From the NCBI GenBank assembly GCA_040218735.1, contig JAVJQW010000061.1:292768-356767 (forward strand): a stretch of 64,000 bases of DNA, read 5' to 3'. Each line of letters begins with the position of its first letter. The first letter of the stretch is position 1. Below the pieces are notes generated by a model that saw nothing but the letters and a program-made list of their open reading frames with translations, searched no databases and was not told the origin of the DNA. The stretch comes from Deltaproteobacteria bacterium (lineage in GTDB: Bacteria; Myxococcota; Kuafuiibacteriia; Kuafuiibacteriales; Kuafuiibacteriaceae). Positions 26,958-34,723 of this stretch are shown one piece after another. The translations under genes and the position numbers were made by a program.

Positions 26958-28169
26958 ATGGGGCGAAGGCGCAGGATCCGGCTGTGTCAGCTCACGCCCT
27001 GTCTGTGGAGCGGGGGCACCGAGGAGCGCCTGGCCCGGGTCATGGCCGCGATGGACCGCTCGGAGTTCGAGCTGACGTGGATGGGGTTCGGCCCGGTCCG
27101 CGAGGCGCTGATCGACCGCGCGGGGCCGTCGATCGACGTCGTGCCGTTTTTGCGTAACGTCGGCGGCGGCGTCGAGCCGCAGCTCGTGCTGCAGATCGCG
27201 AGGCAGCTGCGAAAGCGTCGCCCGGATGTCATGCACATCCACAACTGGTCGACGTCCCTGTACGGCATCGCCGCCGCCCGCCTCGCCGGCGTCCCGTGCG
27301 TCGCGTACGGGTTGGGGGGTGCGGAGAGCGCCGACGAGGCCCCACCCCGCCGCAAGAAGGCGATGCGAGCGCTCGCGCCCCACGTGGATCGCTTCACAGC
27401 GGTGTGTCGGTTCCTCGGGGATCGGATCCAGGAGAACTGGGCGGTCCCGTCCTCGCGGGTGTCGGTGCTGCGGACCGGGATCGACCTCGACTGGATCGAC
27501 CGGGGTCCGAGCGGCGCCGAGATTCGGGAGCGGCTCGGCCTGGCGCCCGACGCGCTGATCGTCGGCGCGGTGAGCGTGCTTCGGCCGGTGAAGCGCATCC
27601 ACGACCTGATCGAAGCGGTCGGGCGGATCGCGCCGCGGTTCCCGAGGCTTCAGCTCGTCATCGGCGGCAACCCGCTCGGCGTCTCCCTCGACGAGCTGCG
27701 CGCGCAGGCCGAGGCGCTCGGGTTGGAGGATCGGATCGTCCTGCTGGGCCGGGTCGTGCACCCGGAGCACCTGCTGCGAGCGTTCGATGTGTTCGTAAAC
27801 TGCTCCGCGTTCGAGGGCGCGTCGAACGCGATCCTGGAGGCGATGGCGGCGCGGGTACCCGTGGTCGCGACGGCGGTAGGCGGCACGCCGGAGCTGATCG
27901 ACGACGGCGTCGAGGGCCTCCTCGTCCCGCCCGCCGCTCCGGCCCGGCTCGGTGACGCCCTCGCCCGCCTCCTCGCCGATCCCGAGCTGCGGACGAGCGC
28001 GCAAGAGGCCGGTCGGCGCCGAATCGAGTCCCGTCACACGTTCACGCATATGGTGGACGGATACCTCGCCTTCTACCGCGAGAGCGGAGCGCGCGCCGCG
28101 GACGTCGGCCGCGCAGCCCGCACGGCCTCCGCAATGTGGACGACGCTTCAGCGGCTCGCCGCGTCCTGA
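26958..28169 (+). CDS. Glycosyltransferase family 4 (GT-B)
   Basis: GGTE; K motif in RPVKR; EGASNAILEAMA; VGGTPE. Confidence 0.85.
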   Translation: MGRRRRIRLCQLTPCLWSGGTEERLARVMAAMDRSEFELTWMGFGPVREALIDRAGPSIDVVPFLRNVGGGVEPQLVLQIARQLRKRRPDVMHIHNWSTSLYGIAAARLAGVPCVAYGLGGAESADEAPPRRKKAMRALAPHVDRFTAVCRFLGDRIQENWAVPSSRVSVLRTGIDLDWIDRGPSGAEIRERLGLAPDALIVGAVSVLRPVKRIHDLIEAVGRIAPRFPRLQLVIGGNPLGVSLDELRAQAEALGLEDRIVLLGRVVHPEHLLRAFDVFVNCSAFEGASNAILEAMAARVPVVATAVGGTPELIDDGVEGLLVPPAAPARLGDALARLLADPELRTSAQEAGRRRIESRHTFTHMVDGYLAFYRESGARAADVGRAARTASAMWTTLQRLAAS

Positions 28170-28987
28170 GTTCGCGCCGGCGGCCACCGCGTGGGGAGCG
28201 GATGAACGAGACGCGCCGCGGTCGAACGCGGGAAGGTCTCGTCGCCGGCGAAGCCGAGGGCCTCCGGCTGCTCGGTGTCGCCCGGTAGGTACGCCGTCCC
28301 GAACAGGAAGTCCCACGCAGGGAAGATGATCGCGAAGTTCTGTCCGTGTGATACGTGCAGCGTTCGGTCGTGGTGCCAGACGTGGAAGCGCGGAGAGTTG
28401 ATCACGTAGCGGAGCGGCCCCCAGTCCCAGCGGATGTTCGCGTGATTCAGGTGGCCGATCAGCGTGCCGACCACCGCGATCGCCAGCATAGCGCGGCCGT
28501 CGATACCGAGGATCACGAGCGGGAGGTAGGTGAGCGCCCGGTAGATGACGATCTCCATCCAGTGGAATCGGAAGCTCCCGATCCAGTCGAGCGCTTCGAT
28601 GGAGTGGTGGACCTTGTGGAACGTCCACAGCCACGGGACGCGATGAAGTAGCCTATGGATCGACCACTCGAGGAAGTCCTTCAGCACGAGCACGACGACG
28701 AACTGAACGGCGAGCGGCGCGGCACCGAGCCACGCGATCGACGCCGGCTCGGCGAGCCCGACGAGCCCAAACAGGGCGGCGATTTCCTCGACAGCGCGCG
28801 CGGCGGGGATCGCGATCAGCACGCCCGCGAAGTGCCCGTTGAAAACGAGCCAGAAGATGTCCTGCAAGAGGTCGCGCCGGAGGACCGGCTGCTTCGTTCG
28901 CCACGTGAAGAGGCGCTCGAGCCCGAAGCTGAGCGCGGATACCACCAGCAGCCAGAAGAAGTAACCGCGAGGCTCCAACGACGGCAC
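28148..28987 (-). CDS. Sterol desaturase / fatty acid hydroxylase family protein
   Basis: His boxes HRLLH, HKVHHS, HAN and HVWHH; WDFLFGT. Confidence 0.85.
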   Translation of the reverse strand: MPSLEPRGYFFWLLVVSALSFGLERLFTWRTKQPVLRRDLLQDIFWLVFNGHFAGVLIAIPAARAVEEIAALFGLVGLAEPASIAWLGAAPLAVQFVVVLVLKDFLEWSIHRLLHRVPWLWTFHKVHHSIEALDWIGSFRFHWMEIVIYRALTYLPLVILGIDGRAMLAIAVVGTLIGHLNHANIRWDWGPLRYVINSPRFHVWHHDRTLHVSHGQNFAIIFPAWDFLFGTAYLPGDTEQPEALGFAGDETFPRSTAARLVHPLPTRWPPARTQDAASR

Positions 28988-28996
28988 CTCGTCACA

Positions 28997-29040
28997 TTGA
29001 CGGCTCCGTTCGAAATATTCAATAATTCAATTGAATTGAA
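28997..29040 (+). promoter_or_regulatory. Putative promoter and ArsR operator
   Basis: TTGACG (28997) followed by an AT-rich island containing the inverted repeat ATTCAAT-N6-ATTGAAT (29017-29036). Confidence 0.5.
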
Positions 29041-29722
29041 GAACAAAAAGTACAGCTCGTCGCCCCGTGCGTTCAAGGACGCGATCTTCGGGCACCTCGC
29101 GCGGGTGGGAAAAGCGGTCTCGAACCCGGTCCGGGTCGAGCTGTTGGAGCTGCTGTCGCAGGCGCCGCGAACCGTGGAGGCGTTGGCGAAGGCGTCGAAC
29201 CAGAGCGTCGCGAACACGTCGCAGCACCTTCGGGTGCTGAAGAACGCGAGGTTCGTGGAAGCCGAGAAGCGCGGGCTCTTCGTCACCTACCGTCTCGCCG
29301 ACGAAGTGGTCGCCGACTTCTGCGTTTCACTTCGGAGCCTCGCGGAGCGGCGCATCCTGGAGATCGAGGCGCTGACGGAGGCGTTTCTGAGCGAGCGCGA
29401 CGCGCTCGAGGCCGTGGACCAAGACGACCTAGCCCTGCGCGTCGCGCGCAGCGAGGTGACGGTGCTCGATGTCCGTCCCGCGGAGGAGTACCGGGAGGCG
29501 CACATCGCGGGGGCGATCTCGGTGCCGCTCGAAGAGCTCGAACAACGGTTCAAGAAGCTGCCCAAGCGCAAACAGATCGTCGCGTACTGCCGCGGACCGT
29601 ATTGCGTGTTCGCAATCGAAGCGGTCGAGCGACTCCGGCGTAGCGGCTACGACGCGGTTCGACTCGAGCTCGGAGTGCAGGACTGGCGTGCGCGCGGTTT
29701 TGCGATCGAGGGCGCGTCGTGA
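29036..29722 (+). CDS. ArsR/SmtB transcription factor fused to a rhodanese domain
   Basis: KAVSNPVRVELLELL...SQHLRVLK; LDVRP.EEY..AHI.GA; YCRGPYC; TTG start at 29036 inferred. Confidence 0.88.
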   Translation: MKNKKYSSSPRAFKDAIFGHLARVGKAVSNPVRVELLELLSQAPRTVEALAKASNQSVANTSQHLRVLKNARFVEAEKRGLFVTYRLADEVVADFCVSLRSLAERRILEIEALTEAFLSERDALEAVDQDDLALRVARSEVTVLDVRPAEEYREAHIAGAISVPLEELEQRFKKLPKRKQIVAYCRGPYCVFAIEAVERLRRSGYDAVRLELGVQDWRARGFAIEGAS

Positions 29723-30690
29723 CGTTCGTCTTCACGGGCCTCCTCGTCGGGGCGCTCTACGGGTACATCGCCAAGCGCGGCGCGTTCTGAATGAGCTCCG
29801 GCTTTCGCTTCGTGGTCACGAAGCGCGACACGACGAAGCTCGAGGCCTATCTCCTCGCGATCGCCGTGCAGATGATCCTCGTCCCGCCGCTCCTCCTCGT
29901 GATGGGCGTAGATCCGATCCATCCGTCGTTCTTCCCGGTCGGCGCAGTGGTGGGCGGGTTGTTGTTCGGGGCGTCGATGTCGGTGGCCGGTGGGTGCGCC
30001 GCGGGCGTGTGGTTCAAACTCGGCGGCGGGAGCCTCGAAGCCGGCGCGGCCGTCCTCGGGATGATCGTCGGCGCGGCGTCCTTGGAGGTGGGGCCACTCG
30101 CGTTCGTTCGGCGCACCCTCCACTCGGTGTCGGTGCCGTCGTTCGAGTTCGACGGTGCGCTCGCCGCGGTCAGCGTCGTCGCGGGTTTGGTGATCGCCGG
30201 GCTGCTGATGCGAGCGAAGGTCACGATGGCCGGCGACTGGACCTGGCGCCGGACGGGGCTGCTCGTGGGGCTGACGGGCGTGCTCGCGTGGCCGCTGTCG
30301 ATCGCCGCGGGGCGCCCGTTCGGGATGGCCGTCATCCCGGGCGCGGTGTCGCTGCTGTCACGCCCACTTGGCGTGAACTACGCGGCGTCAGCGTGGGACC
30401 TGTTGTTCGTCGTTGGGGTTCCGCTCGGCGGCCTCCTCGCTGTGCGCGGCCGTGCCGCCTTCACGGCGATGCCCACCCTTGGCGCGGCCGCGCGCCGGTT
30501 TGCGGGCGGCCTCGGCCTGGGCCTCGGCGCCTCACTCGCCGCCGGGTGCACCGTGGGCCATGGCCTGACGGGGCTCCCCCTCTTCGCCCCGGGCAGCGCT
30601 GTGACGATGCTCGCGATCTTCGCCGGAAGCGTCGCGGCGCCCGTCGCCGCGGCGTGGCGGCAGAAGGCGAAGGTGAGCGGGCGGGCTTGA
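29719..30690 (+). CDS. YeeE/YedE (TsuA-like) thiosulfate/selenium transporter, predicted selenoprotein (Sec24)
   Basis: GTG start overlaps the upstream stop (GTGA). Reads VTFVFTGLLVGALYGYIAKRGAF-TGA-MSSGFR, in frame with the 29791 ORF. GGCAAG and AGCTVG motifs follow; SECIS-like hairpin downstream. Confidence 0.85.
29793..29841 (+). promoter_or_regulatory. Bacterial SECIS element
   Basis: Upper stem CGCTTCGT (29806-13) / ACGAAGCG (29818-25), loop GGTC starting 24 nt after the TGA; lower stem GAGCT/AGCTC. Confidence 0.75.
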
Positions 30691-30700
30691 TCGGCCGACC

Positions 30701-30802
30701 GAGACCGATTCCGATTCCGAGGCCGATTCGGAGGCCGATTCCGAGGCCGATTCCGAGGCCGATTCCGAATCCGAGGCCGATTCCGATTCCGAGGCCGAAT
30801 CC
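30701..30802. repeat. Intergenic tandem repeat of 6/12-bp units (GAGGCCGATTCC)n
   Basis: Directly visible, with minor unit variants. Confidence 0.9.
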
Positions 30803-30951: not shown

Positions 30952-31395
30952 ATGCGCCCCGACGAGCTCACCCGCCGCCTTGGATTCCACGCCGCCCTGC
31001 TCTTCGCGATCGGGGCGTTGACCGGCCTGCTGCTGGCGGGCGCCGCGACCGGGGTGCTGCCGGCGGAGACGGACGCCGTCCTCGCCGCTCACCTCAACGC
31101 GATCCTCGGGACGTTCCTCCTTCTCGGGTTGGCGTTCACGTCGCGGCACTGGTGTCTGTCTGAGCGCGGTCGACGCGCGCTCGTCTTTGCGTTCCTCGTC
31201 TCGAGCTACGCGAACTGGGCGGTGACGCTCACGAAGGCCTTCCTGCACGTGCGTGGGCTCGAGATCAGCGGCAACGTCACGAACGACGCGATCGCGGGGC
31301 TGCTCACGCTCTTCGTCGCCGTGCCGACGCTCGTCGGCGCCGCGCTGTGGACGTTTGCGATGCGCAAGCCGATCGCCGCCGTCGCCGCGAGCTGA
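30952..31395 (+). CDS. Hydroxylaminobenzene mutase / styrene-oxide isomerase-like membrane protein
   Basis: Four TM helices; LLFAIGALTG, AAHLNAI, SYANW. Confidence 0.55.
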   Translation: MRPDELTRRLGFHAALLFAIGALTGLLLAGAATGVLPAETDAVLAAHLNAILGTFLLLGLAFTSRHWCLSERGRRALVFAFLVSSYANWAVTLTKAFLHVRGLEISGNVTNDAIAGLLTLFVAVPTLVGAALWTFAMRKPIAAVAAS

Positions 31396-31432
31396 GGCTT
31401 GTCCTCGAACCGCGCGCGATCGATACCGGGGC

Positions 31433-34400
31433 ATGGCTCCGCCTCGCCTGCTGCTCGACGCGCTCGGCCTCGTCGAGGCCGCCGACGCCCTGGAGACCGC
31501 GGCGACGGTGCGCTTCCTCCGTCCGAACGGTGACACGACGAAGGCGGACGTCTGGCTCGTCCGAGACGCCGACCGCGTCTGGCTCGCAGCGGCGAGCAAA
31601 CGCGGCGCCTGGTCCGTGGAGGCCCGCGACGCCGAAGACGCCGAGCTCCGACGCGCACTCACCCGCGACACGGTGACCGTCGCGGGCTACACCGCGCCGC
31701 TCCGCCGCCGAACGTCCGACGCCGCGCAGTCGATCCTCACCGCATTCATCGAGGCCACGCGCGAAACGTCCAAAACCGGTCGGAGCGCAGACGACGCTGG
31801 AGCCGAAGCCAACGCCACCGCCCTAGCCAACGCCACCGCCCCAGCTAACGCCACCGCCCCATCCGAAGCCACCGCCCCGGCTAACGCCACCGCCCCAGCC
31901 AACGCCACCGGCCCCGCCGAAGCCACCGCCCCCGCCGAAGCCAACGCCCCTTCCGAAGCCAACGCCCCATCCGAAGCCACCGCCACAGCCAAAGCCACCG
32001 ACCTGGCCGACCCCAACGCCACCGCAGAAGCCGCCGGACCTGCCGACGCCCCGGAACGGGCCCCAGCCACCGAAGCTCCCGAAGCCACCGGCCCCCGTGG
32101 CTTGGCGGACACTCCAAAGGCGGCGACCACGAACCACTCGGCGCCCCCCGCGTTCCTCGACGTGGCCCCGTGGTGGTCCCACGTCCCCGCCGTCGAGGGC
32201 GACCCGTGGCTGTTCGCGGTCGTCACGCGCTCCACGCTGCCGTTCGTCGACGCCCGGTTCGGCGTCGTCGACATCCCGCTCGCCGTCGCCGTGAGCGAGC
32301 GCTCGCTGCACCTCGCGGCGTACCACGCGCGCTCGGCGCCGCGCGCCCGATGGGCACTCGACGGCTTCGACATCGTCGAGTCCGCGGAACACGTCATCGC
32401 GGCCTGCGCGCTCGAGGGCGAAGTCGAGCACATCGCGAAGCTCGGACGCGACGAGCTCCGTATTGGCCCGTGGCGGCTGTCGCTGGACGATGACGACGCG
32501 GTCGCGCTCGCCACCGTCGCGAAGCTCGACGGCGAAGCAAGACTCGCGTGGTTGCTCGAACACGCCCTCACCCGCCGTGACCCACGCGCCGCCGAGGCCT
32601 ACGTCGAACACATCGTGCACCGGCTGAGCCTCGACCCCGGCGGCGCCGCCCCCTCAACCCCCCGATGGCCGATCCACGCCGCGCCGGCGCTCGCGGCGCT
32701 CGACCTCGCGACCGAGCGCTTCGACGATGCGCTCGCGCTCCTCGCCCAGCCCGGCGTCGCGCTCGACGCGCGCGCCGACGTCCTGCGCCTCGCCGAGCAC
32801 GCGGCAGCGACCCTCGACGACGCGCTCCGCGATCGCCTCTCGATCGTCCCGTCCCCTCCGCCCGCCGCACCGCCGCGCGACTTCGTGTGGCCGCCCGAGA
32901 GCGCCGACGTCCTGTGGAGCGCCGCCGCAGCGCTGCAAGGGCGCGTGGAGGACGCCGTCGCCTACCTCGAGTCCGTCCCCGAACCGGAGCGCACCCACGC
33001 CCGCCTCGCGATCGAGGCCAACGTGGACGAAGGTGTGGTGTCGATCGACGCGTGGCGCGAGGTCGCCGAAGCGTTCGCGGCCACGGGCGCCTTCGATCGC
33101 GCCGCCACCATCACCGCGCGCGCCATCGAGCGCTCACCGACGGCGGCGCTATACGTACGCGCCGCCGGGTGGCGCTGGCGCGATGGTCAGACCGACGCCG
33201 CCTGCGACGCGATCGAAGCCGCGGCCGAAGCCGATCCCACCGCGGAAGAGCTCGCGTGGCTCGTCGCTGCCGTCGCACCGGCCGAGCGCGCCGAACCCTC
33301 CGTGGCCGAACGGCTCCTCGGGAAGATCGTGGAGATGACCAAGGGCGCCTCCGCGGATCCGCTCGAGGCGTTCGTCGAGCGCCTCACGGAGCGCGGGCAT
33401 TCGCGCGTCGCGGCGAAGCTCCTCGTCGAGCACGCGTTCTTCGGACTCGTCGACGACACCGTCCTGGACGCCGCCGCCACGCGCTGCGCCGGAGCGCTCG
33501 ACGCCCCCCACGAAGCGGCGCTCCTCGTCGAAGCCCTCGCGCGGCGCGCCGACGAACGCGAAGAGGAAACCGGTCCGCACTGGCTCCGCGCCGCCGCGTA
33601 TCGCGCGCGCGCCGACGAACACGCGGTCGCCACGCACGACCTCGCCTGCGCGATCGCCGCCGACTTCCTCCGCCCCGCCACTTACCGCGCCGCGCTCACG
33701 ACCGACCGTGTCGCGCTCCCGAGCGACGTCGAAGCCTGGTGGCGCCACCTCCTCGCGAGCCTCGAAGGAGACTCCGCGGAGCGCTCCCCGATCGGCGCTG
33801 CACCCAAGCTCGACGCCAACACGCTCGACACGCTCCACCCCGGAGGCGTCGGCTGGCTCGACCAGCTCCGGCAGGCGGTGCAGGAGGTCGAGCCACCGAG
33901 TCACGCTTCACTGACGCGCGGCCTCGAACGACTCTCCGCCGAGCGACACCCCGAGACCGCAGCAACGATCGACGATCTCTGCCGCGCGCTCGGCATCGCC
34001 CAGCCGGACTGCTTCCTCTATCGCGGCGACGACGCGCACGGCGTCTGCGTCTGGCCGATCGACAAGCCGGTACTCCTCCTCGGCCACCGCCACCTCGAGC
34101 CCGGCCCGTTCGAGCTTGCCGCGGATGCGCTCCGCTTCGTCATCGGCGTCGAGCTCACACACTTGGCCTGCCGCCACCCCCTGCTGTCGTTCGAAGCCGA
34201 CTTCCTCGGCACGAGCCACTCCGTCTACCAACAGTTCGGCCGCTACGCCGGCGCCGCCGAGACCCTCGTCGACGTGGTGACGATGCTCCCGGGTGTCGAC
34301 CAAGTCGCGAAGCTCCAACGCATCGTGAAGCTCTCTCGCCGGGTGTTCACGGCGAAGTCGGCCGTCGACAAGGTCGGCTCCCTCGCGGCCCCGCTCACGA

Positions 34401-34723
34401 AGCTGTTCGGCGACGGCGCCGACGGACCGCGCGGCATCGGGCGCAACGCGATGGCCGGCGCCGCCCTGCAATTCCGCATGCAGGCCGACCGCGCCGCCCT
34501 GCTCCTGACGCCCGACTTCGTCACCGCGGTCGACGCGCTCCTCGCTGCATCCGGACGCGCCGCCGACGACCGACGCGCGATCCTCGAGCGGGGCCTCGCG
34601 GCCGCGTTGGAGTCCGACGCGCTCGAGGGGCCGGAGAAGCTCCGCATCAGCGCGCTCGCCGAGTTCGCGGCCAAGCAGATGCCGTTCGCTCCGAGCGCGC
34701 GCGGCATGGAAAACGCGACCTGA
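31433..34723 (+). CDS. Large hypothetical protein: Ala-rich hexapeptide repeats, TPR-like helices, degenerate M48-like C-terminus
   Basis: ANATAP/SEATAP repeats; LRFVIGVELTHL; ADRAALL. Confidence 0.5.
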   Translation: MAPPRLLLDALGLVEAADALETAATVRFLRPNGDTTKADVWLVRDADRVWLAAASKRGAWSVEARDAEDAELRRALTRDTVTVAGYTAPLRRRTSDAAQSILTAFIEATRETSKTGRSADDAGAEANATALANATAPANATAPSEATAPANATAPANATGPAEATAPAEANAPSEANAPSEATATAKATDLADPNATAEAAGPADAPERAPATEAPEATGPRGLADTPKAATTNHSAPPAFLDVAPWWSHVPAVEGDPWLFAVVTRSTLPFVDARFGVVDIPLAVAVSERSLHLAAYHARSAPRARWALDGFDIVESAEHVIAACALEGEVEHIAKLGRDELRIGPWRLSLDDDDAVALATVAKLDGEARLAWLLEHALTRRDPRAAEAYVEHIVHRLSLDPGGAAPSTPRWPIHAAPALAALDLATERFDDALALLAQPGVALDARADVLRLAEHAAATLDDALRDRLSIVPSPPPAAPPRDFVWPPESADVLWSAAAALQGRVEDAVAYLESVPEPERTHARLAIEANVDEGVVSIDAWREVAEAFAATGAFDRAATITARAIERSPTAALYVRAAGWRWRDGQTDAACDAIEAAAEADPTAEELAWLVAAVAPAERAEPSVAERLLGKIVEMTKGASADPLEAFVERLTERGHSRVAAKLLVEHAFFGLVDDTVLDAAATRCAGALDAPHEAALLVEALARRADEREEETGPHWLRAAAYRARADEHAVATHDLACAIAADFLRPATYRAALTTDRVALPSDVEAWWRHLLASLEGDSAERSPIGAAPKLDANTLDTLHPGGVGWLDQLRQAVQEVEPPSHASLTRGLERLSAERHPETAATIDDLCRALGIAQPDCFLYRGDDAHGVCVWPIDKPVLLLGHRHLEPGPFELAADALRFVIGVELTHLACRHPLLSFEADFLGTSHSVYQQFGRYAGAAETLVDVVTMLPGVDQVAKLQRIVKLSRRVFTAKSAVDKVGSLAAPLTKLFGDGADGPRGIGRNAMAGAALQFRMQADRAALLLTPDFVTAVDALLAASGRAADDRRAILERGLAAALESDALEGPEKLRISALAEFAAKQMPFAPSARGMENAT
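31802..32090 (+). repeat. Intragenic 18-bp repeats encoding (A/S)(N/E)ATAP
   Basis: GCCAACGCCACCGCCCCA-type units in tandem. Confidence 0.8.

Follow-up and report, generated by a model that had tools for sequence, protein, structure and literature searches.

The subject of this analysis is a gene for a YeeE/TsuA-like membrane transporter in a 64,000-nucleotide (nt) stretch of DNA from a Myxococcota genome (Deltaproteobacteria bacterium, assembly GCA_040218735.1, contig JAVJQW010000061.1, positions 292,768 to 356,767 of the forward strand), the whole of which we call the window. A preliminary description of the window proposed that an in-frame UGA near the start of this gene encodes selenocysteine (Sec) in place of a conserved cysteine, that a selenocysteine insertion sequence (SECIS) hairpin follows it, and that standard gene calling shortens the protein. 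The gene and the elements that matter for this proposal are the following:

29708 to 29712, plus strand: Shine-Dalgarno-like GAGGG, 6 nt 5' of the GTG at 29719, read from the sequence
29719 to 30690, plus strand: full YeeE/TsuA-like coding sequence (CDS) of 323 codons, with the UGA at codon 24 predicted to be read as selenocysteine
29788 to 29790, plus strand: in-frame UGA, the proposed Sec24, in the column of Cys22 of S. thermophila YeeE
29806 to 29825, plus strand: predicted bacterial SECIS-type hairpin with an 8-base-pair (bp) stem and the loop GGUC (29814-29817), 23 nt after the UGA
29995 to 29997, plus strand: codon of Cys93 (AGGCAAG), aligned to Cys91 of S. thermophila YeeE
30547 to 30549, plus strand: codon of Cys277 (AAGCTVGHG), aligned to Cys293 of S. 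thermophila YeeE

Twenty-three hydrophobic codons (VTFVFTGLLVGALYGYIAKRGAF) precede the TGA at 29788-29790, which is followed in frame by ATG AGC TCC GGC TTT CGC, and the frame then remains open until the TGA at 30688-30690, giving a readthrough product of 323 residues. The preliminary description placed the TGA at codon 24 with MSSGFR in frame behind it, and all of its coordinates proved correct. The coupling it reported between the GTG at 29719-29721 and the stop of an upstream ArsR-rhodanese gene is visible as an overlap with the TGA at 29720-29722 (GTGA), and the two other cysteines that it called intact are present, Cys93 in GGCAAG (29995-29997) and Cys277 in AGCTVG (30547-30549). The Pfam family PF04143 (Sulf_transp, YeeE/YedE) matched residues 20-305 of the readthrough product with 165 bits against a cut-off of 27 (E 3.9e-48) and covered profile positions 1-309 of 310, showing that the family profile begins upstream of the TGA. 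In the public protein collection the gene is present only as a 299-residue product that starts at Met25 (P0002), as expected if gene callers shorten a 323-residue protein, and the record is a fragment without the first helix and the first catalytic residue.

A homologue search of this collection, with 8,000 candidates scored, returned 498 proteins at E<=1e-5, of which 120 were listed. When these were aligned with MAFFT, the TGA column was cysteine within the motif RGAFC[ML][NS]SGFR in 111 of the 120 listed homologues, and the N-termini of homologues lay 23-26 residues upstream of the Cys column. The remaining nine, including the window's own 299-residue product, start at the residue right after the column, which is the start expected if a gene caller had met a TGA form. 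The same shortening seems to hold for at least 8 other clusters in the collection. Two near-identical proteins in one 90% cluster, P0095 (starting at the Met after the column) and P0122 (full length, with Cys), may have diverged between Sec and Cys very recently, or their difference may be an artefact of gene calling.

Nucleotide sequences allowed the column itself to be read. A scan of GTDB species genomes found 61 loci, with the column readable in 45; 38 of these carried TGC or TGT and seven carried TGA (L040, L044, L045, L046, L048, L049 and L050, with labels that include KSB1, Gemmatimonas and 'Cytophagia'). Together with the 111 of 120 listed proteins that have Cys, this gives the Cys/TGA pairs that the preliminary description had suggested looking for. 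A TGA-specific degenerate pattern hit 14 places in JGI metagenome contigs, 12 of them YeeE genes with TGA at the column and two of them chance matches. When the phylum was sampled evenly, 2 of 401 genomes had a homologue at E<=1e-20, namely the window's genome (G000) and one other (G291, 50% identity), and both had TGA. The same column is TGA in 20 further homologues in all (7 from GTDB, 12 from metagenomes and 1 from a phylum genome), making 21 Sec forms with the window, and these come from at least three named phyla plus other lineages.

The machinery that Sec insertion would need is encoded in the window's genome (11.6 Mb, 96.5% complete). The preliminary description had named selA, selB, selC and selD as the genes to confirm, and all four were found over curated cut-offs, with 70.4 bits for tRNA-Sec, 493 for selA, 341 for selB and 326 for selD. 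The selD gene (contig C18, L018, minus strand) is itself a selenoprotein gene, with an in-frame UGA in SGGUAAK and a hairpin of 7 bp with the loop CGGGU 16 nt after the UGA. Five of the seven GTDB genomes with a TGA form had selB over its cut-off, and the other two and G291 had tRNA-Sec (69.3, 64.3 and 77.9 bits) and selA (541, 577 and 570 bits). As far as tested, TGA forms occur only in genomes with Sec machinery.

The predicted SECIS hairpin is formed by CGCUUCGU (29806-29813) paired with ACGAAGCG (29818-29825), confirming the perfect 8-bp stem and GGUC loop of the preliminary description, with the loop 23 nt after the UGA. A SECIS test had also been suggested there, and for this we used the published bacterial model (PMC13188914), which is described as having a loop of 3-9 nt, a stem of 4-16 bp, a G in the first two loop positions, a distance of 16-37 nt from the UGA and a minimum free energy (MFE) of -7.5 kcal/mol or lower. 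The window hairpin lies within every one of these limits (GGUC, 8 bp, 23 nt and, for the isolated hairpin, -10.5 to -11 kcal/mol). Its z-score was -2.03, and 7 of 200 shuffles were as good. An Rfam scan of 29700-29900 returned chance-level matches only (E>1).

The likeness to the E. coli fdhF element that had been pointed out also holds. In fdhF the UGA is codon 140, the apical sequence is UGCA-GGUC-UGCA and the loop lies 18 nt after the UGA, and both elements have an apical GGUC tetraloop on a short stem inside the CDS just after the UGA. They differ in spacing, which is 18 nt in fdhF and 23 nt in the window (where SelB binding to the hairpin is predicted), and in fold, as fdhF has a 4-bp apical stem plus further paired segments and bulges whereas the window stem is a perfect 8 bp. 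The lower GAGCU/AGCUC helix of the preliminary description does exist in the sequence (29793-29797 with 29837-29841) but is not retained in the nearest TGA homologue, and we rejected it as part of the SECIS on the basis of that comparison.

That nearest TGA homologue (L098, 50% identity) shares with the window the peptide RFVVTKR, the 8-bp stem and the loop GGUC at +23. Its stem (CGCUUUGU/ACAAAGCG) differs from that of the window by UUC to UUU in a Phe codon plus ACG to ACA in a Thr codon, which together make one compensated pair, and both changes are synonymous. Two Cys forms with the same RFVVTKRD peptide (L036 and L030) use GUC and ACC codons there, the stem being broken and the GG loop lost. 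The other Sec forms have the peptide N-L-L-V/G-R-R and a 5-6-bp stem, (C/U)CUCCU/AGGAG(G/A), with the loop GGUC, GGGC or GGGA at +26. Overall, a 4-nt loop starting with GG was found at +23 or +26 in 19 of the 21 Sec forms. A hairpin of -6 kcal/mol or better (our own cut-off, laxer than the model's -7.5) that lies within the other limits of the model was found in 16 of 21 Sec forms versus 4 of 38 Cys forms, a comparison whose rows are related and not independent, so that p-values overstate the case.

Conservation of pairing was also apparent in the 21-row alignment, in which a two-helix structure paired 81.3% of cells versus 33-54% with slid partners, and 0 of 500 shuffles matched the observed pairing or covariation score. 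Alignment pair 27-42, for example, is U-A in 11 sequences and C-G in 6. The two window-type rows were scored as unpaired here because their hairpin lies one codon upstream.

If the UGA were a regulated stop, or were read through by a near-cognate Trp or Cys tRNA, the hairpin would be a pause site, an attenuation element or a selenium-dependent switch. The hairpin energy is modest, alternative pairings exist and the identity of the inserted residue is predicted only, all of which would suit this explanation. We nevertheless regard it as very unlikely, as the site is a conserved and functionally important Cys in a classic Sec/Cys pair, the loop and spacing fit a SelB-type model with the same loop as E. 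coli fdhF, and the TGA forms are confined, as far as tested, to genomes with Sec machinery.

A nonsense pseudogene or an N-terminal truncation would leave a stop after 23 residues and at best a restart at the AUG at 29791, with a product of 299 residues that lacks helix 1 and the first Cys. Gene callers give exactly this product, the AUG stands right after the UGA, the gene is sporadic in its lineage (0 of 19 class relatives), and the C22A variant of S. thermophila YeeE is reported to still complement (PMC7449682). Loss of function is hard to reconcile with the same TGA in 20 other homologues from several phyla and with the constraint on the frame upstream of it. In the large Sec clade, the ratio of nonsynonymous to synonymous changes (pN/pS) was 0.24 in the 20 codons before the UGA versus 0.17 in the 20 after, and between the window and L098 it was 0.35 upstream versus 0.41 downstream, indicating that the segment upstream of the UGA is translated and under purifying selection in TGA forms. 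Two TGA homologues (L098 and L048) have Leu and not Met after the UGA; there is thus no restart codon at that place, and re-initiation would require a much later Met. The hairpin is conserved with compensatory changes, helix 1 falls within the aligned YeeE fold, and a 95%-identical relative, described next, keeps both TGA and hairpin with mostly synonymous differences. A pseudogene is on these grounds highly improbable.

Assemblies from sequencing runs provided further copies of the region. A Logan contig of the probable source run was identical over 29500-30100 at a depth of 17.6. Another study's DNA run gave a 636-nt contig that was 95% identical and covered 29626-30100 with 23 differences; the TGA and the hairpin were unchanged, and 9 of the 15 listed in-gene differences were synonymous. 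In a third study, an RNA library gave a 151-nt contig with the same variant across 29743-29893, including the TGA, and a 369-nt contig of another RNA library covered 29755-29906 with 11 differences, none of them at the TGA among the 4 listed. These RNA-library matches are assembled contigs and cannot show transcription or translation. The other assemblies of this DNA agree with the codon given in the preliminary description, as the TGA at 29788-29790 stands without a listed difference in contigs of four runs. A sequencing or assembly error, with TGC or TGT as the true codon, would require one base to be wrong in a draft assembly of 70 contigs. This is exceedingly improbable given the identical contig of the probable source run at depth 17.6 and three other runs without a listed difference at 29788-29790, and it would leave the matching hairpin and the TGA of the homologues unexplained.

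The homologue, SECIS, machinery and assembly checks together support the core of the preliminary description, namely that a Sec UGA takes the place of a conserved Cys, that a SECIS hairpin follows it and that gene callers shorten the protein. We consider it very probable that the locus is a working selenoprotein gene for a YeeE/TsuA-like transporter, in which UGA codon 24 is read as Sec at the conserved Cys with the help of the SECIS hairpin.

Several points weigh against this reading. The selenium in the protein is a prediction from computation, and the AUG directly after the UGA could yield a 299-residue re-initiated by-product. Ungapped hairpins that fit the SECIS model and are at least as stable follow 4.3% of 18,264 window positions and 73 of 1,451 UGA triplets (~5%) in this GC-rich window, a chance rate of about 1 in 20 that makes the hairpin alone weak evidence and leaves the case to be carried by the comparative data. 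The 66-nt region has an unremarkable z-score of -1.11, and its MFE favours pairing with a downstream copy of ACGACGAAGC. The comparable hairpins in 4 of 38 Cys forms belong on the same side, and the covariation for the window-type hairpin (+23, 8 bp) comes from one homologue and one compensated pair. A YeeE homologue was absent from the 19 other genomes of the window's class (order and class being the same 20 genomes) and was not found in the 60 relatives' genomes searched. The reported complementation by C22A means that the Cys22 position is not essential in every family member. Contigs from the other assemblies are low in depth (2-4), and the identical contig probably comes from the source sample. 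Finally, the substrate, the Se-S chemistry and the rhodanese hand-off discussed below are matters of inference.

The structural family gives the UGA position a place in the transport path. The product aligned with chain A of PDB 6LEO (S. thermophila YeeE/TsuA) over residues 4-300 (E 1.7e-23), with residue 24 on Cys22, Cys93 on Cys91 and Cys277 on Cys293; all three Cys columns are in place, with predicted Sec for the first. Cys22, Cys91 and Cys293 of the S. thermophila protein are reported to form a line through the thin centre, ~7 Å apart (Tanaka et al. 2020, PMC7449682), with Cys22 at the cytoplasmic side, from where a disulfide to Cys91 can form. The structure with YeeD makes Cys22 the third cysteine of the path, at the YeeD interface beside the catalytic YeeD Cys17 (Ikei et al. 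2024, PMC11073785). The preliminary description had called this residue the first of the three transport-path cysteines, which is right for the sequence but not for the proposed path, in which it comes last (C293, C91, C22, then YeeD C17; PMC7449682, PMC11073785). YeeD is reported to be essential for YeeE in E. coli (PMC11073785), and the structural report does not decide between hydrogen bonds and covalent chemistry for the cysteine relay, or between a transporter and a channel for the protein (PMC7449682).

Among the closest known systems are three membrane proteins. The window protein resembles the TsuA/YeeE-TsuB/YeeD systems of S. thermophila and E. coli (PDB 6LEO, 6LEP, 8J4C, 8K1R) in its likely fold and its thin-centre Cys relay. 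It differs in its predicted Sec in place of the cytoplasm-side Cys22, in having an ArsR-rhodanese gene as its neighbour, with no YeeD/TusA-type partner over cut-off in the genome, and in falling short of the TsuA equivalog cut-offs (NF052577, 117.6 vs 400; NF041049, 116.7 vs 645). The best match to the TusA/YeeD family (PF01206) in the whole of the 96.5% complete genome was 22.7 bits, below the cut-off. The window gene is also the sole full-length YeeE in this genome, the other three PF04143 matches being half-size.

A second parallel is SoxT1B of Hyphomicrobium denitrificans, in which all three Cys are reported to be essential, C24S being inactive, and which serves signal transduction to the ArsR-type repressor SoxR (PMC11582611). 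Both loci encode a YeeE-like transporter with an ArsR-type regulator. Unlike SoxR, the window regulator is fused to a rhodanese domain whose CRGxxC is invariant, the first Cys of the window transporter is predicted to be Sec, and, in contrast to SoxT1B, no sox or shdr genes were found in the neighbourhood examined. The third system, the YedE/FdhT selenium-metabolism membrane protein (NF033796, TIGR04112), shares the superfamily and a selenium link, but only the N-terminal third matches and the scores are far below cut-off (58.5 vs 350 and 34.5 vs 200). That family is thought to move selenium, and Sec content is not its defining feature. No NCBIfam model claims the window subfamily.

By computation the locus is a two-gene operon, with the ArsR-rhodanese regulator translationally coupled (GTGA) to the full-length transporter. 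In the mechanism that we propose, SelB with Sec-tRNA(Sec) would bind the hairpin while the ribosome is at the UGA, and selenocysteine would be inserted to give a 323-residue product predicted to have nine helices and the hourglass YeeE fold. Sec24 would lie in loop LA, at the cytoplasmic end of a Cys277-Cys93-Sec24 line through the narrow centre. The placement of Cys22 in YeeE-YeeD and the C24S result for SoxT1B suggest that Sec24 would be the exit and hand-off residue.

The later steps are more speculative. The substrate may be thiosulfate or a related sulfur or selenium species, and at the exit the selenolate, as the stronger nucleophile or leaving group, could form an Se-S bond with the substrate or with Cys93. 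Sulfane sulfur might then move on to an acceptor in the cytoplasm. As the search of the genome gave no TusA/YeeD-type partner, the most plausible candidate for this role would be the rhodanese domain that the co-transcribed regulator carries. In its boldest form, which we think rather unlikely, Sec would make the transporter catalytic, with the selenolate attacking thiosulfate or a sulfane species as it arrives, an Se-S intermediate and sulfur going directly to the CRGxxC rhodanese of its own ArsR regulator in place of TusA/YeeD. If this were true, transport, substrate activation and transcriptional sensing would be one relay.

At the pH of the cell a selenolate carries no proton and cannot donate the S-H...S hydrogen bond proposed for the site, so natural Sec forms would argue for covalent chemistry across the family. 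The predicted Sec here is at the residue that the YeeE-YeeD structure places at the hand-off to the cytoplasmic partner, and with the 21 sequences a Sec/Cys/Ser series is available for study.

The preliminary description regarded Sec in such a transporter as unusual, and its novelty is less than was assumed there, as a YeeE/YedE selenoprotein is already listed in two reviews (example WP_012471001.1; motif GUxSG in the 2026 review), together with several other predicted transporter selenoproteins. Like the window protein, the catalogued form is a PF04143 member predicted to be a membrane transporter that contains Sec. The motif GUxSG is not found at the position studied here, where the window has A-F-U-M-S-S-G and the other Sec clade L-U-M-N-S/A-G. 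It does fit the motifs of the second and third Cys (GGCASG at Cys91 of 6LEO; GGCASG, GGCPSG and SGCTSG in half-size members), which suggests a different Cys as the probable site of Sec in the catalogued form. Judged from the motif only, the Sec position here probably differs from the catalogued one.

The main texts of the two source papers cited for the catalogued form do not mention the YeeE/YedE family, and full-text literature searches found nothing further on a Sec form of YeeE/TsuA. What is new here is probably Sec at the column of Cys22 within a known selenoprotein family, and not a new family. A hunt for GUxSG-type candidates with PF04143 found the family in 240 of the 401 genomes sampled from the phylum. 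Among the 150 of 547 matches listed, the TGA-flagged candidates in G036, G054 and G391 were natural stops at gene ends and were rejected.

In a quick IQ-TREE tree, 53 translated loci fell into three groups, with 16 loci in a Cys clade of Bacteroidota, 16 in a Sec clade and 21 in a mixed clade (Shimodaira-Hasegawa-like approximate likelihood ratio test, SH-aLRT, 98). This tree omits the short-product loci L065, L067, L068 and L086 as well as L088 and L096, which run off their contigs. The window groups in the mixed clade as the sister of 13 Cys forms from Myxococcota (support 82); the placement of L098 there is not settled. On this tree the Sec/Cys state requires three changes, and two of these changes are forced by well-supported branches.

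Three Cys (TGC) forms, L029 (3058 onward), L033 (185 onward) and L035 (3055 onward), have a strong SECIS-like hairpin at the same place, which in L029 and L033 consists of an 11-bp stem with the loop CGGUGA (-17.6 kcal/mol). No selA or selB over cut-offs was found in the genomes of these three loci, which are metagenome-assembled genomes whose completeness was not established. The hairpins may be fossil SECIS elements that persisted after a Sec-to-Cys change.

At least two or three Sec/Cys switches, a hairpin offset by one codon between the two Sec groups and SECIS-like hairpins in some Cys forms make up a compact case for the rise and decay of SECIS elements within coding sequences.

The region upstream of the transporter gene contains three further features:

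28148 to 28987, minus strand: FA_hydroxylase-family membrane protein gene, divergent from the operon (PF04116, E 9.3e-30)
28997 to 29026, plus strand: promoter-like site TTGACG-18-AATAAT in the AT-rich stretch between the divergent genes, a consensus match only
29036 to 29722, plus strand: ArsR-type helix-turn-helix (HTH)-rhodanese fusion gene, 228 residues from the TTG at 29036 (start uncertain), with a stop that overlaps the YeeE start

The promoter-like site matches the consensus at 10 of 12 positions, and one such site was found versus 0.1 expected. The ArsR-rhodanese protein matches the Pfam families HTH_5 and Rhodanese and an NCBIfam ArsR/SmtB model (70 bits), and is a probable sulfur-responsive regulator. 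In 15 of 61 loci (6 Sec and 9 Cys forms) the gene immediately 5' of the YeeE homologue is an orthologue of this regulator gene, and AYCRGxxC is invariant in the 13 ArsR-rhodanese sequences aligned. Of the 61 loci, 11 have an FA_hydroxylase-family gene beside YeeE, among them the Sec forms L048, L093, L044 and L087.

The module of FA_hydroxylase, ArsR-rhodanese and YeeE genes is found repeatedly in several phyla, with Cys forms as well as Sec forms (L027, L039-L044, L046, L048, L053, L060-L062, L064, L066-L068, L085, L087, L088, L093, L094 and L096). In this module a protein of the di-iron lipid-hydroxylase type accompanies a sulfur transporter. An SQR/FCSD-like flavoprotein or DsrE is additionally present at some YeeE loci, and Cys-form relatives including P0062 and P0074 are DsrE (PF02635) fusions of ~480-520 residues. 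Another Cys-form relative, P0126 (534 residues), is fused to a C-terminal part that resembles low-molecular-weight phosphatases and arsenate reductases. On the metagenome contig L094 (10-654), the ArsR-rhodanese gene upstream of a Sec-form YeeE has a non-TGA stop in its inter-domain linker.

Downstream of the transporter gene, an open reading frame of 1,156 residues at 31253-34723 has ANATAP-like repeats near its N-terminus and is without a Pfam match. In the gap before the next open reading frame, directly 3' of the YeeE stop, lies a tandem repeat of period 12 (CCGATTCCGAGG, ~7.7 copies) at 30699-30802.

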